Shown: positions 31,497-64,000 of the stretch, in pieces
Layout: each line of letters starts with the position of its first letter
Numbering within the stretch: the stretch's first letter is position 1
Assembly (NCBI GenBank): GCA_039586365.1
Contig: JBDHKN010000006.1
Span: 1-64,000, forward strand
Direction: 5' to 3'
DNA length: 64,000 nt
From: Gemmatimonadota bacterium
GTDB taxonomy: Bacteria; Gemmatimonadota; Gemmatimonadetes; Gemmatimonadales; GWC2-71-9
Notes under the pieces: generated by a model
Told to the model about the DNA's origin: nothing
Databases searched by the model: none
The model's input: the letters and a program-made list of their open reading frames with translations, nothing else
Made by a program: the position numbers and the translations under genes

Positions 31497-31950
31497 GTGT
31501 GCCCTCAGTGAGTTTTCGGATGGTTCCAAGCCCAAACTCTGGCCGGTCATTTTAGCCCGATTCCAGGGAAATGGGAACAGCAGAGGGATGCTAGGGGTGC
31601 TACTCCGACAGCCCGAGTCATCATCTCTTTCCCCAACTGTCTGACGCAAGTCTCGGCCTCGGCGTAGCTAAATGCACCGGTGCGAAGTCCCCAAACTGAA
31701 TCCAAGCCACTTGCGACTCACCCAATCCCTAAAGGCAATTTGGGAGGCAGTGTGCGACCTTTTGGAGCAACAAAGATGTTGCTCATTTCGTGCTCCAACT
31801 TGGAGTTTCCTGGCATCCGCCACGTTCCTGCGCTCAAGAATTGCGGTGTCGTTACTTTAGGTTTCTGGCGGGGATTCCGTTGGAACCTTATTATCCCGCG
31901 CCTGGGTTACAGCATTCTCCTGCCGTTTGATGATTCTCGGAGGTCTGTGC

Positions 31951-33264
31951 TTGAAGGAACAAAGCTCGAGCCACAAAGAACGTTCCCGCTCCGCAGTGCT
32001 ATGTGAGCGTGCTGGCAAAGTGCTCGTGGGCGGAGTGAACAGTCCGGTGCGTGCCTTCCGAGCGGTGGGAGGCAAGCCGGTCTTCATAGACCGCATGGAG
32101 GGTGCGTGCGTCCACGACGTGGATGGAAACACCTATGTAGATCTAGTGGGCAGTTGGGGGCCCTCGGTTGTGGGGCACGCGCACGCGGACGTGGTTGAGG
32201 CGGTGCGAGAGGCGGCCGCACGGGGTCTGAGTTTTGGCGCTTGTTGTGCAGCGGAGGCTGAGTTGGCGGAACTCATCGTCGGGGCCGTGCCATCCATTGA
32301 GCTGGTCCGGTTCGTCAACAGCGGTACCGAAGCTACCATGAGTGCGATCCGCCTCGCACGGGCCGCCACGGGTAGGTCCAAGATCCTCAAGTTCGTGGGG
32401 TGCTACCATGGGCACGTCGACGGGCTGTTAGTGGCTGCCGGTTCGGGAGCGGCTACGTTTGGGGTGCCCGATTCGGCTGGTGTGCCTGCATCGTACACCC
32501 GTGAAACCCTACTGGCTCAATTCAATGACTTGAAGGCAGTAGAACGGGTCATGAGCCGGCATGGCTCGGAGGTAGCCGCGATCTTGGTTGAGCCGGTGGC
32601 GGGGAATATGGGCTACGTGGAGCCGGTTCGCGGATTCTTGGGGGGGCTGCGCACACTGTGCGATGAACATGGCAGCCTGTTGATCTTCGACGAAGTGATG
32701 ACCGGCTTCAGGGTCGCGTGGGGCGGTTATCAGAACTCTTGTGGCATCAATCCCAATTTGACCTGCTTGGGCAAAGTCATTGGTGGTGGGATGCCGGTAG
32801 CAGCCTATGGTGGTGCGAAGGAACTCATGGAGCTGGTGAGTCCTCTGGGGCCAACCTATCAAGCCGGTACGCTGAGCGGCAGCCCCGTCGGCATGGCTGC
32901 CGGTATCGCGACTCTGAAGCTGTGCAAGGCGACCGGCTTCTACGATTCGCTACATGGCAAGTCCCTGCAACTTGCGCTGGGGCTCCAAGCAGCAGCAGCT
33001 GAGGCGGGTCTTACCGTGCAGACGGGTGCCACTGGAGGGATGTTGGGTATGGCTTTCCTGGACCGGCCGGTGCGCAACTTCGCTGACGCGCAGGCCTGCA
33101 ATCACGATCTGTTTGCTGCGTTCTTCCGAGCGATGCTGGACCGGGGCGTTTGGCTGCCACCCTCGGGATACGAAGCCATGTTCCTCTCCGCCGCGCACGA
33201 CGACGACGCGATCGGGCGGATTCTCGACGCAGCAAGAGAGAGCTTCCGAATTCGACTGCCATGA
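31951..33264 (+). CDS. hemL: Glutamate-1-semialdehyde 2,1-aminomutase
   Basis: GGVNSPVRAF, NSGTEATMSA, DEVMTGFR, LGKVIGGG, YQAGTLSG; TTG start after GGAGGT. Confidence 0.96.
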   Translation: MKEQSSSHKERSRSAVLCERAGKVLVGGVNSPVRAFRAVGGKPVFIDRMEGACVHDVDGNTYVDLVGSWGPSVVGHAHADVVEAVREAAARGLSFGACCAAEAELAELIVGAVPSIELVRFVNSGTEATMSAIRLARAATGRSKILKFVGCYHGHVDGLLVAAGSGAATFGVPDSAGVPASYTRETLLAQFNDLKAVERVMSRHGSEVAAILVEPVAGNMGYVEPVRGFLGGLRTLCDEHGSLLIFDEVMTGFRVAWGGYQNSCGINPNLTCLGKVIGGGMPVAAYGGAKELMELVSPLGPTYQAGTLSGSPVGMAAGIATLKLCKATGFYDSLHGKSLQLALGLQAAAAEAGLTVQTGATGGMLGMAFLDRPVRNFADAQACNHDLFAAFFRAMLDRGVWLPPSGYEAMFLSAAHDDDAIGRILDAARESFRIRLP

Positions 33265-34151
33265 ACTCCCTACGTGTGGGAACTCGTGGCAGCGATCTGG
33301 CGCTATGGCAGGCGAACTGGATCTGTGATCGGTTGCGCGATACGCACTCAGGTGTGGCGGCCGAGCTAGTTGTCATCAAGACCCACGGTGACGTGACTGC
33401 GGATGAGAGGTTCGGTCGGACCTGGCCTGTAGGAGCGTTCGTCAGGGCGTTGGAAACGGCCCTGCTCGACGAGAGGATCGATGTCGCGGTGCACAGCTGC
33501 AAAGACCTGCAGACCACTCAGACGAGCGGGCTGCGGATTGCGGCAACGCCGGTGCGGGAAGTCGCGAACGACGTGCTCCTAACCAGCACGGGCGTACGAT
33601 TGGACAGCCTGCCTCCCCTCGCGCGCATCGGGACGAGCAGTCCGCGCCGGGCCGCCCAGATACTACAACTGGGGGACTTCGAGATCGTCCCTCTGCGGGG
33701 CAATGTTCCGACTCGTATAGCCAAGATGGAGCAGCAAGGTCTCGATGGGATCGTGCTGGCGGCGGCCGGGCTCAGGCGGTTGGGGATCGACTATCCCCAC
33801 GCGATCGACCTCCCCACGGATAGCTTCGTTCCCGCGCCGGGCCAGGGTGCGTTGGCGGTTCAGGTGCGTGCAGGGAGTGAAGCCTCGGAGCTAGTGACGG
33901 TCCTGGAGGATCCGCCGACGCGCGCAGCCGTTACCGCCGAGCGGTGTCTCCTCCGCGAGATCAACGCGGGCTGCCACACACCGGTCGGTGCGCTGGCCAC
34001 GGTGGATGCCGGGACGATATCACTCCAGGCGCAGTTGTTCAGTGACGATTACAGGCGCTGCGTGGCAGGTAGCGAGTCGGGTATGATTCCCGAGGTCATC
34101 GGAGCAAGCTTAGCCCGCAGACTGATGGAAGAGCTACGGGGCCGGCGGTAG
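33261..34151 (+). CDS. hemC: Hydroxymethylbilane synthase
   Basis: GTRGSDLALWQA, AVHSCKD, GTSSPRR, RGNV, PAPGQGAL, GCHTP; ATGA overlap with hemL. Confidence 0.95.
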   Translation: MNSLRVGTRGSDLALWQANWICDRLRDTHSGVAAELVVIKTHGDVTADERFGRTWPVGAFVRALETALLDERIDVAVHSCKDLQTTQTSGLRIAATPVREVANDVLLTSTGVRLDSLPPLARIGTSSPRRAAQILQLGDFEIVPLRGNVPTRIAKMEQQGLDGIVLAAAGLRRLGIDYPHAIDLPTDSFVPAPGQGALAVQVRAGSEASELVTVLEDPPTRAAVTAERCLLREINAGCHTPVGALATVDAGTISLQAQLFSDDYRRCVAGSESGMIPEVIGASLARRLMEELRGRR

Positions 34152-34158
34152 TAGCTGC

Positions 34159-35184
34159 TCAGCCGTGGGTTTCTTGCCACCAGCGGGCGTAGTCCAACGC
34201 TGCATAAGAGAATATCAGGTCTGCACCGGCGCGCGATATCCCCAAGAGCGCCTCTGTCATGCAGGCCCGGTAGTCGAGCCAACCCCTATCCGCCGCCGCT
34301 TTGATCATGGAGTATTCTCCGCTCACTTGGTATGCGGCGATTGGTAGTGCAGTACCTTTCCGGAGCCGGCTTATCACGTCGAGGTAGGGAAGAGCTGGTT
34401 TGACCATTAGGATGTCCGCACCCTCATCCTCGTCGAGCATGGCCTCGACTGACGCTTCGCGGGCGTTTGCCGGGTCAATCTGGTAAGTCTTTTTGTCCGT
34501 GGGGACGTTTGGGGCGGCAGCCGGGGCGGAATCGAGCGCCTCCCGAAATGGTCCGTAGTACCCCGAGGCATACTTTGCGGTGTAACTCAGAATAGCCACG
34601 TCAAACGCCTCTGCCGCGTCTAGGGCAGCGCGGATGGCGGCGACCCGCCCATCCATCATGTCGGACGGAGCGACCATGTCTGCACCGGCTTCCGCATGCA
34701 GCACGGCCATCCTGGCCAACATATCTACGGTTTCATCGTTGAGTATTGTCCCATCTGGAGAGACCAGTCCGTCGTGTCCATGACTCGAATAGGGGTCAAG
34801 AGCGATATCAGTGACAATGTAGGCTTCGGGGATCGCTTGCTTCAGAGTCTGAACCGCTTGGCAGAGCAGGTTGTCCGGATTCACCGCCTCCTGCGCATCA
34901 GGTGTCTTGCGAGATGGATCGATGGCAGGGAACAGAGCGAAAGCACCTAGGCCCAGCGAAAGGGCCTCCTTACATCGCTTGATGATTAGATCTACCGACA
35001 GGCGGGCATGGCCAGGCATCGCTTCGATCGGCTGGGATATGTTCCGACCAGCTACTGTGAACAGCGGCAGGACCAGGTGGTTGGGCCCGAGGTTGGCCTC
35101 CTGTACCAAGCCACGTATGACGGCGTTGCGTCGCAGTCGGCGGGGGCGACGCCACGGACGGGGAAGTTCGGACAGCGAATGCAT
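34159..35184 (-). CDS. hemB: Porphobilinogen synthase (Asp-type metal site)
   Basis: RPRRLR, DIALDPYSSHGHDG, APSDMMDGR, MVKP, YQVSGEY. Confidence 0.96.
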   Translation of the reverse strand: MHSLSELPRPWRRPRRLRRNAVIRGLVQEANLGPNHLVLPLFTVAGRNISQPIEAMPGHARLSVDLIIKRCKEALSLGLGAFALFPAIDPSRKTPDAQEAVNPDNLLCQAVQTLKQAIPEAYIVTDIALDPYSSHGHDGLVSPDGTILNDETVDMLARMAVLHAEAGADMVAPSDMMDGRVAAIRAALDAAEAFDVAILSYTAKYASGYYGPFREALDSAPAAAPNVPTDKKTYQIDPANAREASVEAMLDEDEGADILMVKPALPYLDVISRLRKGTALPIAAYQVSGEYSMIKAAADRGWLDYRACMTEALLGISRAGADLIFSYAALDYARWWQETHG

Positions 35185-35310: not shown

Positions 35311-35397
35311 CGTGACAAAAATCTCGCAAGGCCTTGACTCGGGTCCGCCGAGCGCTAAAATGAGAAAAGTCGCACAAACGTGACGAATATCTCGCAA
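35311..35397 (+). promoter_or_regulatory. rex promoter flanked by two operator-like sites
   Basis: CGTGACAAAAATCTCGCAA (35311), TTGACT(35334)-N16-TAAAAT(35356), CGTGACGAATATCTCGCAA (35379). Confidence 0.75.
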
Positions 35398-36075
35398 AGC
35401 GCCAGCGAAGGCAGTGTTCCGTCGCTGAGCGGAGGTGCTTTGGCACGCCTTAGAAGATTGGTACTCGAACGATTGATGCGGTACTATCGGTTCCTCTCGG
35501 GATCGACGGGCAGGAAGTCGCCCAAGACAGTCACGAGTGCTCAAATCGCCGAGGCTCTGGATCTCGATCCCACCCAAGTGCGCAAGGATTTCGGTGCCAT
35601 CGGTCTCCTCGGCATGGGCCGAGTCGGATTCGATAGATGTGAGGTATGCCGTTCTATCAGGGTGGTCATGGGTTTCGACCAGGAATATGAGGCAGTGGTG
35701 ATAGGCGCCGGTAACCTGGGTGCCGCACTCATGACTTATTCTGGGTTTGATTCCTATGGGTTGCGCATAGTGGCGGCCTTCGACAATGACCGGCGTGTCA
35801 TAGGCCGTAAAATCGCAGGACATAAGATTCAATCCACCAGGTCGCTCACGCCGTTCATCAAAAAGCATGCGATTCGCCTCGCTATCCTCACGACGCCGGT
35901 CGAGGTGTCTCAGAAGGTCACGGATCGTCTGGTAGCGACCGGCATAGAGGCGATCTGGAACTTCACTCCCACTCACCTCGTGGTACCGCCGAGCGTATTC
36001 GTGCGGAACGAGCACATTTCGCTGGGTTTGTCGGTGCTCGCGTACCATTTGAAGGAAGACGCGGCGGAGGAGTAG
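35380..36075 (+). CDS. rex: Redox-sensing transcriptional repressor Rex
   Basis: RLMRYYRFL, TSAQIAEAL...TQVRKDF wHTH, IGAGNLGAAL dinucleotide motif, AIWNFTP; start uncertain. Confidence 0.93.
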   Translation: MTNISQSASEGSVPSLSGGALARLRRLVLERLMRYYRFLSGSTGRKSPKTVTSAQIAEALDLDPTQVRKDFGAIGLLGMGRVGFDRCEVCRSIRVVMGFDQEYEAVVIGAGNLGAALMTYSGFDSYGLRIVAAFDNDRRVIGRKIAGHKIQSTRSLTPFIKKHAIRLAILTTPVEVSQKVTDRLVATGIEAIWNFTPTHLVVPPSVFVRNEHISLGLSVLAYHLKEDAAEE

Positions 36076-52574: not shown

Positions 52575-53801
52575 ATGACGATGGCAGACTTAGGTAGCAA
52601 CGGTACGCCGTTACTGGACGAACTGGAGAAAGGGCCGTGGCCCAGTTTTGTCACGGAAATCAAGCAGACTGCCGGGTTTAGCAAACCAGCCGAGCAGTTG
52701 TTGGCGTTGCTGGAACGGTCCTACAGAGAGAGAATTGGTCACTGGAAGCACGGCGGTATTGTGGGTGTGATGGGATACGGTGGAGGCGTGATCGGCCGCT
52801 ACAACGATCTACCTGAGGAATATCCGGAGATCGCCCATTTCCACACTCTGCGGGTCAACATGCCTACCGGTTGGTTCTACACGTCCGAGGCGTTGAGAAC
52901 GATCTGTGACATTTGGGAGAGACACGGCTCCGGATTGACAAACATGCATGGGTCCACGGGTGACATCATCTTGTTGGGCACCACGACGGACGAGCTCGAG
53001 CCGACTTTTGCCGAGTTGACTGCCAACAGTTTCGACCTGGGTGGATCCGGTTCCGATATGCGCACGCCTAGCGCGTGTGTGGGTCCTGCCCGGTGCGAAT
53101 GGGCTTGCTACGACACGCTACACCTGTGCAATGACCTTACACAACATTTCCAAGACGAGCTGCACCGCCCAGCATTTCCCTACAAGTTCAAGTTCAAGTG
53201 TGCGGGCTGTCCGAACGACTGTGTGGCGTCAGTAGCCAGAGCAGATATGTCGATTATCGGCACCTGGCGGGACGAGATCCAGATCGATCAGGCAGAGGTG
53301 AAAGCTGCGGCCAAGACGGGACTCGACATCCAGAAGGATGTCTGCTTCCTTTGCCCCACCAAATGCATCGAGTGGGATGGCAAGAAGCTGGAGATCGACG
53401 ACGAGAACTGCGTGAAGTGCATGCACTGTATCAACGTTATGCCCAAGGCGTTGCGCCCCGGCAAAGATCGTGGGGCGACGATTCTGCTCGGTGCCAAAGC
53501 ACCGATTGTCGAAGGTGCATTGTTATCCTCGGTGTTGGTCCCGTTCATGAAACTCGAACCACCGTATGATGAGCTCAAGGACCTCGTGGAGAGGATTTGG
53601 GATTTCTGGGGCGAGCACGGCAAGAACCGAGAGCGTGTGGGAGAGCTGATGCAGCGTGTGGGGCTGGGGAACTTCTTGGAGGCGATCGAGGTGGAGCCGA
53701 TTCCGGAAATGATCGCGTATCCGCGAGAGAACCCATACGTATTCTACGAAGAGTACTATGAAGAAGGCGAAGAAGGGGAAGAAGCGGAGGAGGACGAGTA
53801 A
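52575..53801 (+). CDS. dsrA: Dissimilatory sulfite reductase alpha subunit
   Basis: [47 protein letters not shown]; start may be 52581. Confidence 0.98.
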
Positions 53802-53863
53802 AGCAACCGGATCAGTGGATCCGACAGAGCATTAAAAAACAATCGTTCTTGGGAGATATATCG

Positions 53864-54940
53864 ATGGCAACCGAGAGAATAACTGATATCGGGCCTCCGC
53901 ATTACGAAAAATTCCTACCACCCGTGATAAAGCAAAACTACGGGAAGTGGAAATACCACGAGATCCTCAGGCCCGGCGTGATGGTTCACGTGGCCGAATC
54001 CGGCGACAAGCTCTTCACGGTGCGTGCGGCCTCACCACGGCTGCTCGGCATCAAGAAGATCCGCGAGTTCGCGGATCTGGCGGACAAGTATTGTGGTGGG
54101 CACCTCCGCTTCACTAGCCGCAACAACGTCGAATTCCTGCTTACGGACGATTCGAAGATCAACGATCTCATCGCCGACCTGAAGAAATTGGGACATCCGG
54201 TGGGCGGCATAGGCAACGCGATCTCCAACATCGTTCACACGCAGGGATGGGTACACTGCCACTCAGCTGCGACGGATGCATCCGGTGTTGTGAAAGCGGT
54301 GATGGACGATCTGTGTGGGTACTTCACTGGCGATATCGAACTGCCAGGCAAGCTGCGGGTCGCCCTTGCGTGCTGTCTCAATATGTGTGGTGCGGTGCAC
54401 TGTTCGGACATCGCGATCCTAGGTATACACCGCAGGCCGCCAAGAATCCAAGCTGGTCTGAATAAGGTATGCGAAATCCCCAACGTGGTGGCTTCCTGTC
54501 CCACGGCAGCAATCCGGCCGGCAACAGTTGACGGTGCTCCCACGGTAGAGATAGATGAAGAGAACTGCATGTTCTGCGCGAACTGTTTCTCGGTCTGCCC
54601 GGCACTACCAATGGCTGACGCGCTCAACGACGGTGTATCCATCTGGGTCGGGGGGAAAGTCTCGAACGCCCGCAAGGAACCAACCTTCTCCAAGCTGGCT
54701 ATTCCGTTCTTGCCCAACAATCCGCCGCGGTGGCCGGAGGTGACTGAGGCTGTGCGGAACATAGTGGAAGTATGGGTCAAGAACGCCCGCAAGTTCGAGC
54801 GGATGGGTGAGTTCATCGAGCGTATCGGCTGGCCCCGTTTCTTCAAGATGACGGGCATTGAGTTCGCTAAAGAGCATATTGACGATTACAAATACGCGGG
54901 CCTTTCGTACAAACGGTCTGCACAGCTCAGACACAACTAG
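53864..54940 (+). CDS. dsrB: Dissimilatory sulfite reductase beta subunit
   Basis: [46 protein letters not shown]. Confidence 0.98.
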
Positions 54941-56989: not shown

Positions 56990-58399
56990 GTGAGCACACC
57001 GCGAGTACTGATCGCAGGGCTACGCGGAGGCAGCGGCAAGACGGTAATATCTCTGGGACTCGTGGCAACCTGGCGCAAGCAAGGTTGTCACGTTTCGCCC
57101 TTCAAGAAGGGACCAGACTACATCGATGCAGCCTGGCTATCGGCTGCGGCAGGCAAACCCTGCCGGAACCTCGATCTCTTCCTCATGACCCCAGATACGG
57201 TCCTGCGCTCGTTCGCAGCTGCGGCCGGGCCGGCCGACGTGGCTGTCATAGAGGGCAATCGCGGGTTGTTCGACGGCATGGACGCCCGGGGCAGCTACAG
57301 CACGGCCGAGTTGGCCAAGTTGCTGAAGAGCCCGGTGTTGCTCGCTGTCGATTGCACAAAGGCAACGCGTACCATCGCGGCAATGGTCCTAGGTTGTCAG
57401 AGACTCGATCCCAGCGTCTCGCTTCGCGGTGTCATTCTGAACAATGTGGCCGGTCCTCGGCACGAGTCGGTGCTGCGTGAAGCAATGGCTGAGATCAGCG
57501 GGCTGCCCGTGGTGGGTGCGCTGGGCCGAATCCCCGGAGAGCTCTTTCCAGAACGGCACCTTGGGCTCGTGCCACCCCAAGAGCACGAGCAATTGTCTCC
57601 AGCGATACAACAGGCCGCCAGTGCGGTCGAACAGCAGTTGGACTTGGCCGCCATCTGGGACATTGCGCGCCAAGCTCCAGAGCTCGACCCCCACGACTCG
57701 AATCCGACTGCCACAGGTGACGAGGGGCGGAATGCCGTCAGGATCGGTGTGTTCCGCGACGCTGCATTTCAGTTCTACTATCCCGAGAACCTCGAGGCCC
57801 TGGTTCGGCAGGGGGCGATCTTGCTGGAGGTTTCTCCGCTCCACGATACTGCGCTACCGGACGTGGATGCCCTGTACCTCGGGGGAGGATTTCCGGAGAC
57901 AGCAGCACCGGCGTTGGCAGACAACAGGCAATTCCTGGACTCGCTACGTGACTCAGTCAACAGTGGCTTGCCGGTATACGCAGAGTGCGGGGGAGCGGTC
58001 TTTCTGGGGGAGAAGCTCCTCTACAATCATAGAGAATACCCGATGGCGGGCATACTACCAGTCGTTTTCTGCTTCGAGGCAAAACCGCGGGGGCACGGCT
58101 ACGCCGTACTCGAAACCGTGGAGAACAACCCGTTTTTCACAGTCGGGGAATGTCTCCAAGGGCATGAGTTCCACTACACCCACATGCAGTCGTCTGCGGT
58201 GGAGGATCTGAAGTTCGCATTCCGGGTCCGTCGCGGCTATGGATTCGATGGCCAAAGGGACGGCTTGTGTTATCGCAATGTGCTCGCGTCCTACACTCAC
58301 CTGCATGCGTTGGGGACGGAGAGTTGGGCTCCGTCCGTGGTTCGGGCCGCCACCCGGTTCAAGTCGCGGAGCGCGAGCCATACTGGCGTTGGCCTCTAG
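56990..58399 (+). CDS. dsrN: DsrN (cobyrinate a,c-diamide synthase family)
   Basis: GGSGKT, FKKGPDYID, IEGNRGLFDG, ERHLGL, YAECGG, GHEFHY; inside dsr cluster. Confidence 0.9.
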   Translation: MSTPRVLIAGLRGGSGKTVISLGLVATWRKQGCHVSPFKKGPDYIDAAWLSAAAGKPCRNLDLFLMTPDTVLRSFAAAAGPADVAVIEGNRGLFDGMDARGSYSTAELAKLLKSPVLLAVDCTKATRTIAAMVLGCQRLDPSVSLRGVILNNVAGPRHESVLREAMAEISGLPVVGALGRIPGELFPERHLGLVPPQEHEQLSPAIQQAASAVEQQLDLAAIWDIARQAPELDPHDSNPTATGDEGRNAVRIGVFRDAAFQFYYPENLEALVRQGAILLEVSPLHDTALPDVDALYLGGGFPETAAPALADNRQFLDSLRDSVNSGLPVYAECGGAVFLGEKLLYNHREYPMAGILPVVFCFEAKPRGHGYAVLETVENNPFFTVGECLQGHEFHYTHMQSSAVEDLKFAFRVRRGYGFDGQRDGLCYRNVLASYTHLHALGTESWAPSVVRAATRFKSRSASHTGVGL

Positions 58400-61102: not shown

Positions 61103-61549
61103 ATGTCTGAGGACGCAATAGAGTCGAGACCCAACGAAGAACAGTTGCTGTACGCCAAGATCCTGGAGATTGGCATGTTCGTTGGGCTGGGGCTTCTGCT
61201 CGTAACGTTCTTCCTCTATGTCTCTGGCATAGTCGCGCCGGCGGTGCCGGTTGAGGAATTGCCCAAGTATTGGGAAATGAGCGTCCACGATTATTTGGAA
61301 GCCACAAACCACGACTATGTACACCGGGAACACGCCATCACGGGTTGGTCTTGGCTCTCTGTACTTGGAAAGGGAGACTACCTCAATTTTCTGGGGATCG
61401 CCCTACTATCTGGAGTGACGGTCGTCTGCTATTTGGGGATTGTGCCGACGCTAATCAAGAAGAGGGATCTTGTCTTCGCTGCCATCTCCTTGATGGAAGT
61501 CGTGATCCTGACGCTCGCGGCGAGCGGCATCCTCAGTGTCGGGCACTAG
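61103..61549 (+). CDS. DUF1634-like membrane protein
   Basis: Three hydrophobic helices, directly after TauE gene, TLAASGI C-terminus. Confidence 0.7.
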   Translation: MSEDAIESRPNEEQLLYAKILEIGMFVGLGLLLVTFFLYVSGIVAPAVPVEELPKYWEMSVHDYLEATNHDYVHREHAITGWSWLSVLGKGDYLNFLGIALLSGVTVVCYLGIVPTLIKKRDLVFAAISLMEVVILTLAASGILSVGH

Positions 61550-61598
61550 CACTTGGGTTTCTGAAGGCGGCAGTGTGACTACTGATTCTAGCGGAACC

Positions 61599-62072
61599 AT
61601 GCGGTTCCTTCCGATAGGACTTGACGTCCGTGGCAGGGTTTGCCTGGTTGTTGGCGGTGGGAGTGTAGGGACTCGCAAGGCAGTGACACTTGCTCAGGCG
61701 GGTGCAGCCGTAACGGTAGTCTCGCCTGTCGTCACTGCTGAACTTGCCGAGCAGATACGCGCTGGCCGCATCAATTGGGTGGAGGGAAAGTTCCGAGACG
61801 GGCATCTGTCTGGTGTCTTCCTCGCGGTTGCTGCTACGGATGACGATGCCTTGAATGCCATAGTCGTCAGGGTCGCGGGGGAGCGTGGTGCCCTGGTCTG
61901 CGATGCCTCGTCAGCCGAGCGCTCTCAAGTGATCTTCGGCGCTGTGCTGGAGAGTGATGAAGCCACCGTTGCCGTCTTCACGGATGGCCGAAATCCAGCA
62001 CAGGCTAGGCGGACACGCGACCAGATTGCAGGTTTCATTGCCGCGGAACGCAAGGTTGGGCCTCAGTCCTGA
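61599..62072 (+). CDS. Precorrin-2 dehydrogenase-like (SirC/CysG-B domain)
   Basis: FLPIGLDVRGRVCLVVGGGSVGTRK, VVSP, AATDDDALN. Confidence 0.85.
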   Translation: MRFLPIGLDVRGRVCLVVGGGSVGTRKAVTLAQAGAAVTVVSPVVTAELAEQIRAGRINWVEGKFRDGHLSGVFLAVAATDDDALNAIVVRVAGERGALVCDASSAERSQVIFGAVLESDEATVAVFTDGRNPAQARRTRDQIAGFIAAERKVGPQS

Positions 62073-62258
62073 TTTGCCTGTGTCGACGAACTTGATCGGA
62101 TTGGAGAGAGGAGCGGTGAGCAAGACGCTGGATTAGATTCAAGACGCAGTCCCCCTGCAGGCAATCTCGCTCGGATGTCTTAGACACTCCACCGAAACAT
62201 CTTGCCATGAGAAGGCTGTGAGCGAGGTGCCTGTAGTGAATTTGTCGCAGAGTGAGCC

Positions 62259-64000
62259 ATGTCCACGTTCACCACAGACAGCTCGGCAACATCACCCATG
62301 CACCAGGGGCGTAGCTCGCTAGTGCCGGGGCGGCGGGGAGTGTTGTTGCTCAATCTGGGAATGCCTGGCCGAAGTGACCCTTCTTCCGTGCGCCAGTTCC
62401 TCTTGCAGTTTCTTGACGATCCTCTCGTCATCGGCTCGCTCCCGGAACTCAGGTGGCTCCGACGGGGTCTGCGCAGTTGGATGCTCCGCTTGCGGGCAGC
62501 GCGCCTGGTGGATTCCTGCCGCACATACAGGGAGGATAGCGGGTCTCAGCCGAACATCATTGCGGAACAGGCTGCTGCGCTGGGTGCTGTTCTTCCAGAG
62601 CACTGGCGGGTATTCACGGGTACACGCTATGGGGAACCATCGATCTCTGCAGTGCTGAAGCAGATGCAGGACGAGGGTATCGAGCGAATCGTGGCAGTAC
62701 CGCTGTATCCGCAATTCGACCAGGCGACCACAGGCACGATCATGCGCGAACTGTACCGTGTCGTGGGTGAAACGGCACGAAGTATGAGCCTTGCCACTCG
62801 TGCTGCGTGGCACGACGACAGCGGCTACGTGAGTGCCCAAGCGAGATTGATTGCGGAATGGGCACAGTCCCATGATCTGTGGCCGGATGACTCGCACTTG
62901 CTCTTCACGGCCTACGGTCCACCCGGTTCCGGCGTGCAGCGCGAAGATACGTACGCGCCACAGATGAGGAGAACGGTCGATCTGGTGGCTCAACGGTTAG
63001 GCTGGTCTGCGGATCTAGTGTCATTAGCCTTCCAGGGACGGTTCGGTATGGAGCCGGGCCCCGCATGTAGGCCCATCGCCGGCGACGAGCTGGAGCGACT
63101 TGCTCGTTTGGGTGTCAAGAAGGTGCTCGTCTGCCACCTCACCTTTGCCGAGCAGGGTGTGGGTGCCGTGCGGCAGATAGATGGGCAGTCCCAGAAGTTG
63201 TTCGCAGCAAGCGGAGGTCGTCTCCACAATTGCCCGACTCTCTACACACAGAGACCGTTTATCTCCGCGTTGCGAAGCTTGGTAATAGGAGGTCCTAGGC
63301 CGGCTTCGGGCCGAGGGGCTAAACCTCTTCTGGTGCCCAGACTCGACACGGGTCTGACGGACGACGATCCGAAGGCTCTGGTGATGATCGGGACGTCGCT
63401 GGCAAGGCGGCTGCGGTCCGGGCGCGGTCCGCATCTGAAGCACAACCACCCTGGCGTGTTCGCCAAGGTACGCAAGTCACGGAAGACCTTGCTGGGATTC
63501 CTGGATTGGGTCCGTGAGGAGGGGATTGTCAAGGAGGCGTTCGTCTGGAACACGTGCCAGCGGCTCGAGTTCTACGGATGGCTCGCGGATCCGGATGACT
63601 CCGTCGACCGCGAGTGGGTCGTCGCGACAGTGCGGAGCAGACTGTTCGAGACCGAACCAGAAGACCTCCATGTCAACGTGTTGTTTGGCGTCAACGCCTG
63701 GCATCACCTAATGCGCACAGCGTCTGGATTGAATAGCGCGCTGCCAGGGGACACGGACGTGGTGGCACAACTGCAAACGTCCTGCCAGATAGCCGAACGT
63801 GCGAGGGTTGCGGGCCCAATCGCAGCTCGACTGGTAAGGAGCGCAGTGGAGCTGACCCACAAAGTACGCGCTGAAACTGCGTGGGGCCAGTTCAGCTCTG
63901 GGTACTGCCTCGCTGCTCTGTCCCACGTTCGTGCAGTGAGCGGCGTCGATCTAGACGCGTGTCGCCACCTCGTCATTGGTGGCTCAGCCACGTCACGTTC
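62259..64000 (+). CDS. Fusion of degenerate ferrochelatase-like domain and glutamyl-tRNA reductase-like domain (partial)
   Basis: One stop-free frame from ATG 62259 to window end: GVLLLNLGMP, RYGEPSI, VPLYPQF, LLFTAYG, FQGRFG, then NTCQRLEFY and HHLMRTASGLNS. Confidence 0.85.
   Translation, partial: MSTFTTDSSATSPMHQGRSSLVPGRRGVLLLNLGMPGRSDPSSVRQFLLQFLDDPLVIGSLPELRWLRRGLRSWMLRLRAARLVDSCRTYREDSGSQPNIIAEQAAALGAVLPEHWRVFTGTRYGEPSISAVLKQMQDEGIERIVAVPLYPQFDQATTGTIMRELYRVVGETARSMSLATRAAWHDDSGYVSAQARLIAEWAQSHDLWPDDSHLLFTAYGPPGSGVQREDTYAPQMRRTVDLVAQRLGWSADLVSLAFQGRFGMEPGPACRPIAGDELERLARLGVKKVLVCHLTFAEQGVGAVRQIDGQSQKLFAASGGRLHNCPTLYTQRPFISALRSLVIGGPRPASGRGAKPLLVPRLDTGLTDDDPKALVMIGTSLARRLRSGRGPHLKHNHPGVFAKVRKSRKTLLGFLDWVREEGIVKEAFVWNTCQRLEFYGWLADPDDSVDREWVVATVRSRLFETEPEDLHVNVLFGVNAWHHLMRTASGLNSALPGDTDVVAQLQTSCQIAERARVAGPIAARLVRSAVELTHKVRAETAWGQFSSGYCLAALSHVRAVSGVDLDACRHLVIGGSATSR

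Follow-up and report, generated by a model that had tools for sequence, protein, structure and literature searches.

The locus raises the question of why a single polypeptide on a dsr/apr island of a Gemmatimonadota bacterium should combine a ferrochelatase (HemH)-like part with a glutamyl-tRNA reductase (GluTR, HemA)-like part, and which of the two halves still works. The window (the whole stretch of DNA that was analysed, 64,000 nucleotides) holds 580 stop-free codons of this frame (62259-63998, plus strand), and in the genome the frame runs on to a stop on contig C97, giving a protein of 748 amino acids. The protein matched Pfam Ferrochelatase over residues 26-342 (187 bits) and GlutR_N over residues 409-540 (68 bits at a cut-off of 27), followed by a weak Shikimate_DH-type Rossmann match (residues 564-673, E 0.054). 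It terminates without a dimerisation domain, and in the Pfam search GlutR_dimer (PF00745) was absent from P0002 and from all 110 family entries. An earlier note made from the sequence of the window had described more than 580 uninterrupted codons in one polypeptide, an N-terminal part resembling HemH, a tyrosine in place of the catalytic histidine, the stretch EQGVGAVRQID where an acidic segment is expected, and a HemA part with the catalytic cysteine and the variant motifs GDTD and VIGGSATS. All of these readings were reproduced: codon TAC aligns with the catalytic histidine of human ferrochelatase, EQGVGAVRQID aligns with the pi-helix, codon TGC for Cys433 begins at 63555, and both variant motifs are present (Table 1). 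The reductase half and its relatives are called variant HemA below.

Table 1. Features of the fusion gene and of the tetrapyrrole genes around it. Positions refer to the window or, with the prefix C97, to the genome contig.
Feature	Position	Strand	Basis or remark
hemL, glutamate-1-semialdehyde aminomutase	31927..33264	+	over TIGR00713 cut-off
hemC	33150..34151	+	
hemB	34159..35184	-	
dsrA and dsrB, siroheme users	52575..54940	+	
CbiA/CobB-family amidase, DsrN by position	56990..58399	+	3' of dsrAB-dsrL; name inferred
SirC / CysG-N precorrin-2 dehydrogenase	61536..62072	+	directly upstream of the fusion
HemH-HemA fusion ORF	62259..64000, runs on past the window to C97:64505	+	open frame; junction spanned by contig
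Domain of ferrochelatase fold (aa 26-342) lacking the catalytic His and Glu; lip aa 44-90 retained	62334..63284	+	Pfam, alignment
Tyr219 (TAC), position of the catalytic His	62913..62915	+	alignment to human ferrochelatase; contigs
Gly302, position of the catalytic Glu	63162..63164	+	alignment to human ferrochelatase
GlutR_N catalytic domain of the variant reductase: Cys433 (63555-63557), His483, Ser493, Asp498, Asp500, Gln504	63480..63878	+	Pfam, alignment
Rossmann domain start, GGSATS at 63978; YR and DFN past the window to about C97:64277	63948..64000	+	alignment
CbiX/SirB-type chelatase	C97:64549-64905		directly downstream of the fusion, past the window
CobA-HemD fusion	C97:64886-66457		after the CbiX/SirB-type gene, past the window

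Two checks that the note had proposed, sequence support across the domain junction and a search for the domain architecture, came out in favour of a genuine fusion. A contig assembled from run X1 covers 63135-64000 without a gap and bridges the junction, and contigs of runs X2 and X3, which come from two further studies, show no change in the Tyr219 codon; this support consists of assembled contigs, not raw reads, and X1 is possibly the source sample. Of the 111 matches from a protein search, one is the entry of the window itself and one a canonical HemA; the other 109 are relatives, and all but one of these (108) are two-domain proteins. These homologues, the intact frames in G002, G006 and G007 and the bridging contig rule out an assembly artefact. 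The fusion gene is the sole match to either family in its genome (86% complete), and neither a sigma-70 promoter nor a terminator was found in 61900-62400.

By source names the family is hosted by Gemmatimonadota, Planctomycetota/Phycisphaerae and Zixibacteria, mostly by Planctomycetota and Gemmatimonadota. A query with the reductase half added stand-alone forms of variant HemA and 12 SirC-HemA fusions; in those at L076:8265-10010 and L096:1701-3443 the dehydrogenase stands in the chelatase's place. At E 1e-30 the family comprises 64 clusters among 1.84 billion representatives, separated by a gap from canonical HemA, which lies at about 30% identity, and the 38 distant members examined include more decayed fusions as well as stand-alone forms whose TCNR and GEQE/GEKD motifs bridge to canonical GluTR. 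P0255 and P0263, GluTR-like stand-alone proteins of 360-368 residues with TCNR, GEQE/GEDE, GGS/GGN and DFNS motifs, are candidates for an unfused sister group. P0092 (1269 residues) reads as a triple fusion of HemH, variant HemA and HemN with an intact chelatase score, possibly a read-through in one assembly. The earlier note knew of no description of the architecture, and none was found in the literature open to the search, including term look-ups in the accessible text of PMC13564367, PMC7242693, PMC11316326, PMC10581226, PMC10504309 and PMC10591310; automatic JGI names of the type 'protoheme ferro-lyase/glutamyl-tRNA reductase' exist for family entries. We therefore regard the proteins as a real fusion family with a divergent GluTR subfamily, both apparently undescribed.

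The surroundings of the gene point to siroheme. The window also holds apr, qmo, sat, dsrC, dsrMKJOP, dsrAB, dsrL and a DsrN-like amidase, followed by sirC, the fusion, cbiX and cobA-hemD; the dsr, apr, qmo and sat names other than dsrA are presumed ones, given partly by motifs and gene order. If the fusion is the reductase, the island covers all steps from Glu-tRNA to siroheme amide, the role of DsrN being taken from the accessible text of PMC10504309. Among the 69 loci collected, all 36 Gemmatimonadota-type loci adjoin sirC, cbiX or cobA and none adjoins hemN/E/Y, whereas 27 of 31 Planctomycetota loci, plus 2 unlabelled ones, adjoin hemN/E/Y. Likewise, dsrA was found in 31 of 37 Gemmatimonadota-type carrier genomes vs 2 of 14 from Planctomycetota. 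When 400 genomes spread evenly over the phylum were sampled, variant HemA occurred in 4 and dsrA in 7, all 4 lying within the 7 (kin, and so not independent), which bears out the link to dsr clusters that the earlier note had drawn. The dsrA-bearing genomes that lack variant HemA are of two kinds: in G050 a canonical hemA lies beside sirC and cobA in the dsr island, and in G137 and G186 the gene order of the window is kept minus the fusion gene, with canonical hemA elsewhere.

Several further features of these loci were recorded. A gene at 35380-36075 of the window (PF06971 and PF02629), which we take to encode a Rex-type redox regulator, lies between hemB and aprB, and the block hemL-hemC-hemB-rex-aprB recurs in G279. 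Between dsrN and sirC, two tandem cytidylate-kinase-like genes (PF13189; 58412-59973), the second with a BON domain, are followed by a TauE exporter, an arrangement conserved in several loci. A second sat-aprB-aprA set is present at G000:C16:820-4335 (69-73% identical to the reference proteins used). The dsrA-bearing Phycisphaerales genome G310 has two fusion copies about 8 kb apart (L103:13066-15390 and L065:9854-12229), one in a hemN/E/Y cluster and the other, with a GERE motif, in a siroheme cluster adjoining rex and aprB; this second cluster (hemL-hemC-hemB-cobA-cbiX-rex-aprB) resembles that of the window. The second copy was considered as a bridge to the dsr clade and rejected, as it does not group with the Gemmatimonadota clade in the tree.

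Variant HemA was compared with canonical GluTR (HemA/GtrR; PF05201, TIGR01035) from M. kandleri (1GPJ) and Arabidopsis (4N7R), to which it is about 25% identical. TCxRxE, the His, GLxS, G-acid-x-acid and the Gln are in register, a Rossmann domain comes next, and the genome has hemL; Cys433, GDTD and GGSATS line up with TCNR, GEGQ/GEQE and GAGKM/GAGEM. Over 110 aligned rows, T432, C433, R435, E437, S493, P496, G497, T540, W542, G574, S576, T578, R602 and DFN672-674 are invariant, and H483 (106 rows), D498 (108), D500 (107) and Q504 (109) nearly so. The putative substrate-pocket His, Ser and Gln are retained, while at both acidic positions nearly every row has Asp, with GE in some relatives; the positions of these presumed pocket residues (His, Ser, Glu-x-Gln/Glu and Gln) come from the 1GPJ/4N7R alignment. 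There are also differences: variant HemA has GGS[AT]TS, YR and DFNxxGS for GAGxM, NR and DIAVPRD, its N-terminal motifs are replaced, it has no dimerisation domain, and a chelatase or SirC domain precedes it. Its score against the hemA equivalog model TIGR01035 is 79.3 at a cut-off of 209.55, so that strict membership in hemA fails. In a profile comparison with canonical HemA, the alignment extends up to the long helix before the dimer domain, where the variant HemA family ends; the Rossmann domain was aligned by profile (probability 98.4), although its motif reads GGSATS and PF01488 stayed under its cut-off. In the canonical three-domain HemA of the G050 dsr island (L127:11171-12421) the nucleotide-binding motif reads IGVNQM, so that this motif can vary.

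Whether variant HemA is the working GluTR was addressed by genome content, using the carrier genomes of 50 of the 69 loci (19 were left out) together with G000, 51 genomes in total; most of them are incomplete, so that 'not found' does not equal absence. Variant HemA is the only GlutR_N match in the genome of the window, which also encodes HemL and the downstream HemB, HemC and HemD. Canonical hemA was not found in 29 of the 51 carriers (19 of 37 of the Gemmatimonadota type and 10 of 14 from Planctomycetota; the single-contig genomes G279 and G310 are among the 29), and none of the 5 carriers tested had an ALA synthase over the cut-off. Since no other HemA-type gene was found in the genome and the gene sits in a complete siroheme kit on the dsr/apr island, variant HemA is likely a working GluTR and, judged by its sequence and setting, likely the source of ALA for siroheme. 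A related NADPH-dependent acyl-thioester reductase acting on another substrate would also account for the score far below the hemA cut-off, for the Asp in place of Glu in the substrate motif, for the altered nucleotide-binding and N-terminal motifs and for the presence of a canonical hemA alongside in 22 of 51 carriers (one of these broken in the assembly). We consider this very improbable: variant HemA is the sole HemA-type gene where the pathway is otherwise complete, it invariably lies in tetrapyrrole clusters, canonical hemA occupies its role in the G050 island, and the Atlas commonly contains GluTR-like clusters of 320-370 residues, most of them without the dimer domain.

The chelatase half is recognisable but damaged in the window. 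It scores 143.9 against TIGR00109 (cut-off 124.6), and compared with HemH/PpfC (human 2QD3 and 1HRK; PF00762) the whole fold, RYG, PLYPQF and the lip are present. Its pocket, however, has Tyr for the catalytic His (human H263), Gly for the pi-helix Glu (human E343), Gln for Asp, Gly for Ser and Ala for Trp; the counterparts of human Y123, S303, W310 and D340 have also disappeared. According to the accessible text of PMC9133952, all H263 variants studied in human ferrochelatase are inactive, and E343K is inactive yet co-purifies with protoporphyrin; by this comparison the domain is likely dead as an enzyme, as the earlier note had proposed, and binding of a porphyrin would be possible.

Across the family the chelatase is found in all stages of decay. 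The 110 rows fall into 37 intact copies, 10 in which His and Glu are kept but the loops are altered, and 63 decayed ones. The last figure is a maximum, as some entries are gene calls cut short at the N-terminus; the chelatase of L045, at a contig end, and that of L051, interrupted by a gap of N, could not be judged. Columns conserved at 90% or more number 102 in the intact copies and 18 in the decayed ones. Position 219 of the decayed rows is occupied by H (17), D (10), S (7), P (7), Q (5), R (4), Y (3), a gap (3) or others (7). Selection was estimated from pairs with unsaturated dS, saturated ones being excluded. Between the window copy and its nearest relative L106, dN/dS is 0.33 (CI 0.24-0.47) for the chelatase and 0.13 (CI 0.08-0.19) for the reductase. 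In intact pairs the two halves have near-equal values (0.10/0.14, 0.04/0.05 and 0.24/0.20), and in decayed pairs the chelatase value is 2.5 to 7 times that of the reductase. Purifying selection on the chelatase domain is relaxed yet present.

The pattern of decay fits a loss of use. Intact chelatases occur in Planctomycetota copies within haem clusters, and the dsr-island copies erode by many routes. Of the carriers lacking a canonical hemA hit, 3 of 19 had HemE, vs 17 of 18 of those with canonical hemA, and the latter mostly have a separate HemH. Six Gemmatimonadota copies keep His and Glu; the idea that they do so for want of another HemH was ruled out, since each of the six genomes has a second one. 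The N-domain has a class II chelatase fold and lies between sirC and cobA, and there is no cbiX within 10 kb of these six copies, which would suit its re-use as sirohydrochlorin ferrochelatase in the siroheme kit. A CbiX/SirB gene was found, however, in 35 of 37 Gemmatimonadota-type carriers, all six included, and directly behind the gene of the window, whose own copy has neither His nor Glu; this rules out a SirB stand-in, and the idea can be given hardly any weight.

The earlier note had suggested that the dead domain serves as a tyrosine-liganded tetrapyrrole sensor or as a scaffold controlling ALA supply for siroheme or haem. A built-in sensor, i.e. a dead chelatase that slows the fused reductase when it has haem, siroheme or a precursor bound, has several points in its favour beside the porphyrin held by human E343K. 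The lip is still present in the window's clade, as are the equivalents of human R115, R164, Y165, Q302 and F337, Tyr219 is common to P0002, P0004, P0005 and L106, and the chelatase dN/dS is below 1; in plants, according to the parts of the sources available, ferrochelatase FC2 belongs to a complex inactivating GluTR (FC2-POR-FLU; bioRxiv 10.1101/2022.10.12.511875) and haem-bound GBP governs GluTR stability (PMC6597238). These plant systems likewise tie a ferrochelatase or haem-binding protein to GluTR, but they consist of separate plastid proteins. A conserved axial ligand and an intact pocket were not found across the decayed copies: Tyr219, whose codon differs by a single base from CAC for His, is seen in 3 of 110 rows, which belong to close kin, eleven other states are seen among the decayed copies (the non-His ones being D, S, P, Q, R, G, I, E, V and A), and the lip that closes the pocket is present in 3 of 63, the window's three-member clade. 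The lip is moreover the fastest-evolving part in the window-L106 pair (dN/dS 0.69, CI 0.31-1.71), the four pocket residues named above are gone from the window copy, and the search of the genome for a route to haem b found none. A Tyr-based haem sensor thus appears unlikely, and a sensor of any of these kinds seems to us improbable. The earlier note had also held that homologues keeping His and Glu would count against it, and this objection holds in part: each residue is kept in 64 of 110 rows, and the window copy lacks both.

The siroheme part of the proposed ALA supply is supported by the kit and the island. HemE, HemN, ChdC, AhbAB and AhbD were not found in the 86%-complete genome, which makes a role in haem supply doubtful, and the siroheme-to-haem (Ahb) route was ruled out, PF17805 being over the cut-off in 0 of 51 genomes and AhbD in 0 of 5. 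G000 and the single-contig genome G279 (whose coordinates match G006) have a dsr/apr island with haem-dependent membrane subunits, yet no HemE, HemN, ChdC or AhbAB was found in them, nor AhbD over the cut-off. As DsrM needs haem according to the accessible text of PMC10504309, haem scavenging or an unknown haem route is possible in these two.

If the domain is neither enzyme nor sensor, it might be a pure passenger, functionless and surviving since a stop or frameshift would sever the reductase, on its way to in-frame deletion. The graded series looks like such a course: it runs from intact copies through those with His and Glu but altered loops and those of the window type to copies without the lip, and ends with the domain missing or exchanged for SirC. 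Variant HemA without the chelatase exists at 4 stand-alone loci and in 2 SirC fusions with all catalytic motifs kept, which counts against an indispensable structural role; the chelatase was lost on at least 3 separate tree branches, and the need to fold can by itself give a dN/dS below 1. Against mere decay stand the purifying selection and the lip and pocket residues retained in the window's clade. Outright loss, moreover, is limited to genomes that also hold canonical hemA (6 of 6; none of the 17 judgeable genomes with variant HemA as the only one), although these cases represent few independent events, and hints at a structural role. In addition, W116, R181, D187, Q194, W249 and G345 are common to intact and decayed fusions and rare or absent in 14 stand-alone HemH (one from the unpublished genome G021, the set not being a sister lineage), and the residues surviving in decayed copies are a non-pocket set, which may point to an interface aiding the dimer-less reductase. 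On balance we think a pure passenger unlikely, and the scaffold part of the earlier suggestion finds some support here. A broader version, in which the chelatase of the Phycisphaerae fusion holds and controls the dimer-less reductase in cis and the window's clade is a pseudo-enzyme keeping a tetrapyrrole pocket, tuning the precursor for siroheme or scavenged haem in sulfate-reducing Gemmatimonadota without a known haem b route, is tentative and would rank as rather unlikely.

The dead domain is thus likely structural or residual, and not a sensor. The reading we favour, with a probability of about 0.6, is that a divergent GluTR lacking the dimerisation domain would make glutamate-1-semialdehyde for the siroheme of the dsr island, behind a ferrochelatase domain without His and Glu that would persist as a folded structural partner and not as an enzyme or dedicated sensor. 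Cys433 would attack Glu-tRNA, NADPH bound at the GGSATS/YR Rossmann fold would reduce the thioester, and HemL, HemB, HemC, CobA-HemD, SirC, CbiX and DsrN of the same island would complete siroheme (amide) for DsrAB.

The fusion may have originated as a two-enzyme gene in a haem cluster, a state still seen in Planctomycetota, and may then have been recruited into the siroheme kit for its reductase, where the chelatase, substrate-less (no HemE found) or redundant with a second HemH, would have eroded in frame. That intact forms preceded decayed ones is indicated by the stand-alone HemH, which keep His and Glu. The dsr-island copies form one clade (SH-aLRT 100 and 97) nested inside the Planctomycetota forms in both domain trees. 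In an AU test, however, Planctomycetota as one clade was not rejected (p 0.19), the HemA outgroup is long-branched, and DsrAB of Gemmatimonadota was not acquired from other phyla according to the accessible text of PMC11316326, so that a transfer of the fusion from Planctomycetota to the dsr clade is suggested only.

Known fusions such as CysG and the HemH-HemQ (CpfC-ChdC) protein of C. acnes also place pathway enzymes in one chain but, as far as the accessible text of PMC13564367 and PMC7242693 goes, they join consecutive steps, whereas the HemH-HemA fusion joins the first and last steps and has one half dead in this lineage. Standard hemA models miss this divergent GluTR subfamily, so that genomes carrying it seem incapable of making ALA and are at the same time annotated as having a ferrochelatase. 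The series that leads from intact copies to dead, deleted or SirC-swapped ones is a clean case of a fused enzyme becoming a pseudo-enzyme, and the intact Planctomycetota fusion, a single natural chain, lends itself to testing whether the last part of the haem pathway has a direct effect on the first step. In dsr-bearing Gemmatimonadota, the fusion marks the siroheme kit.
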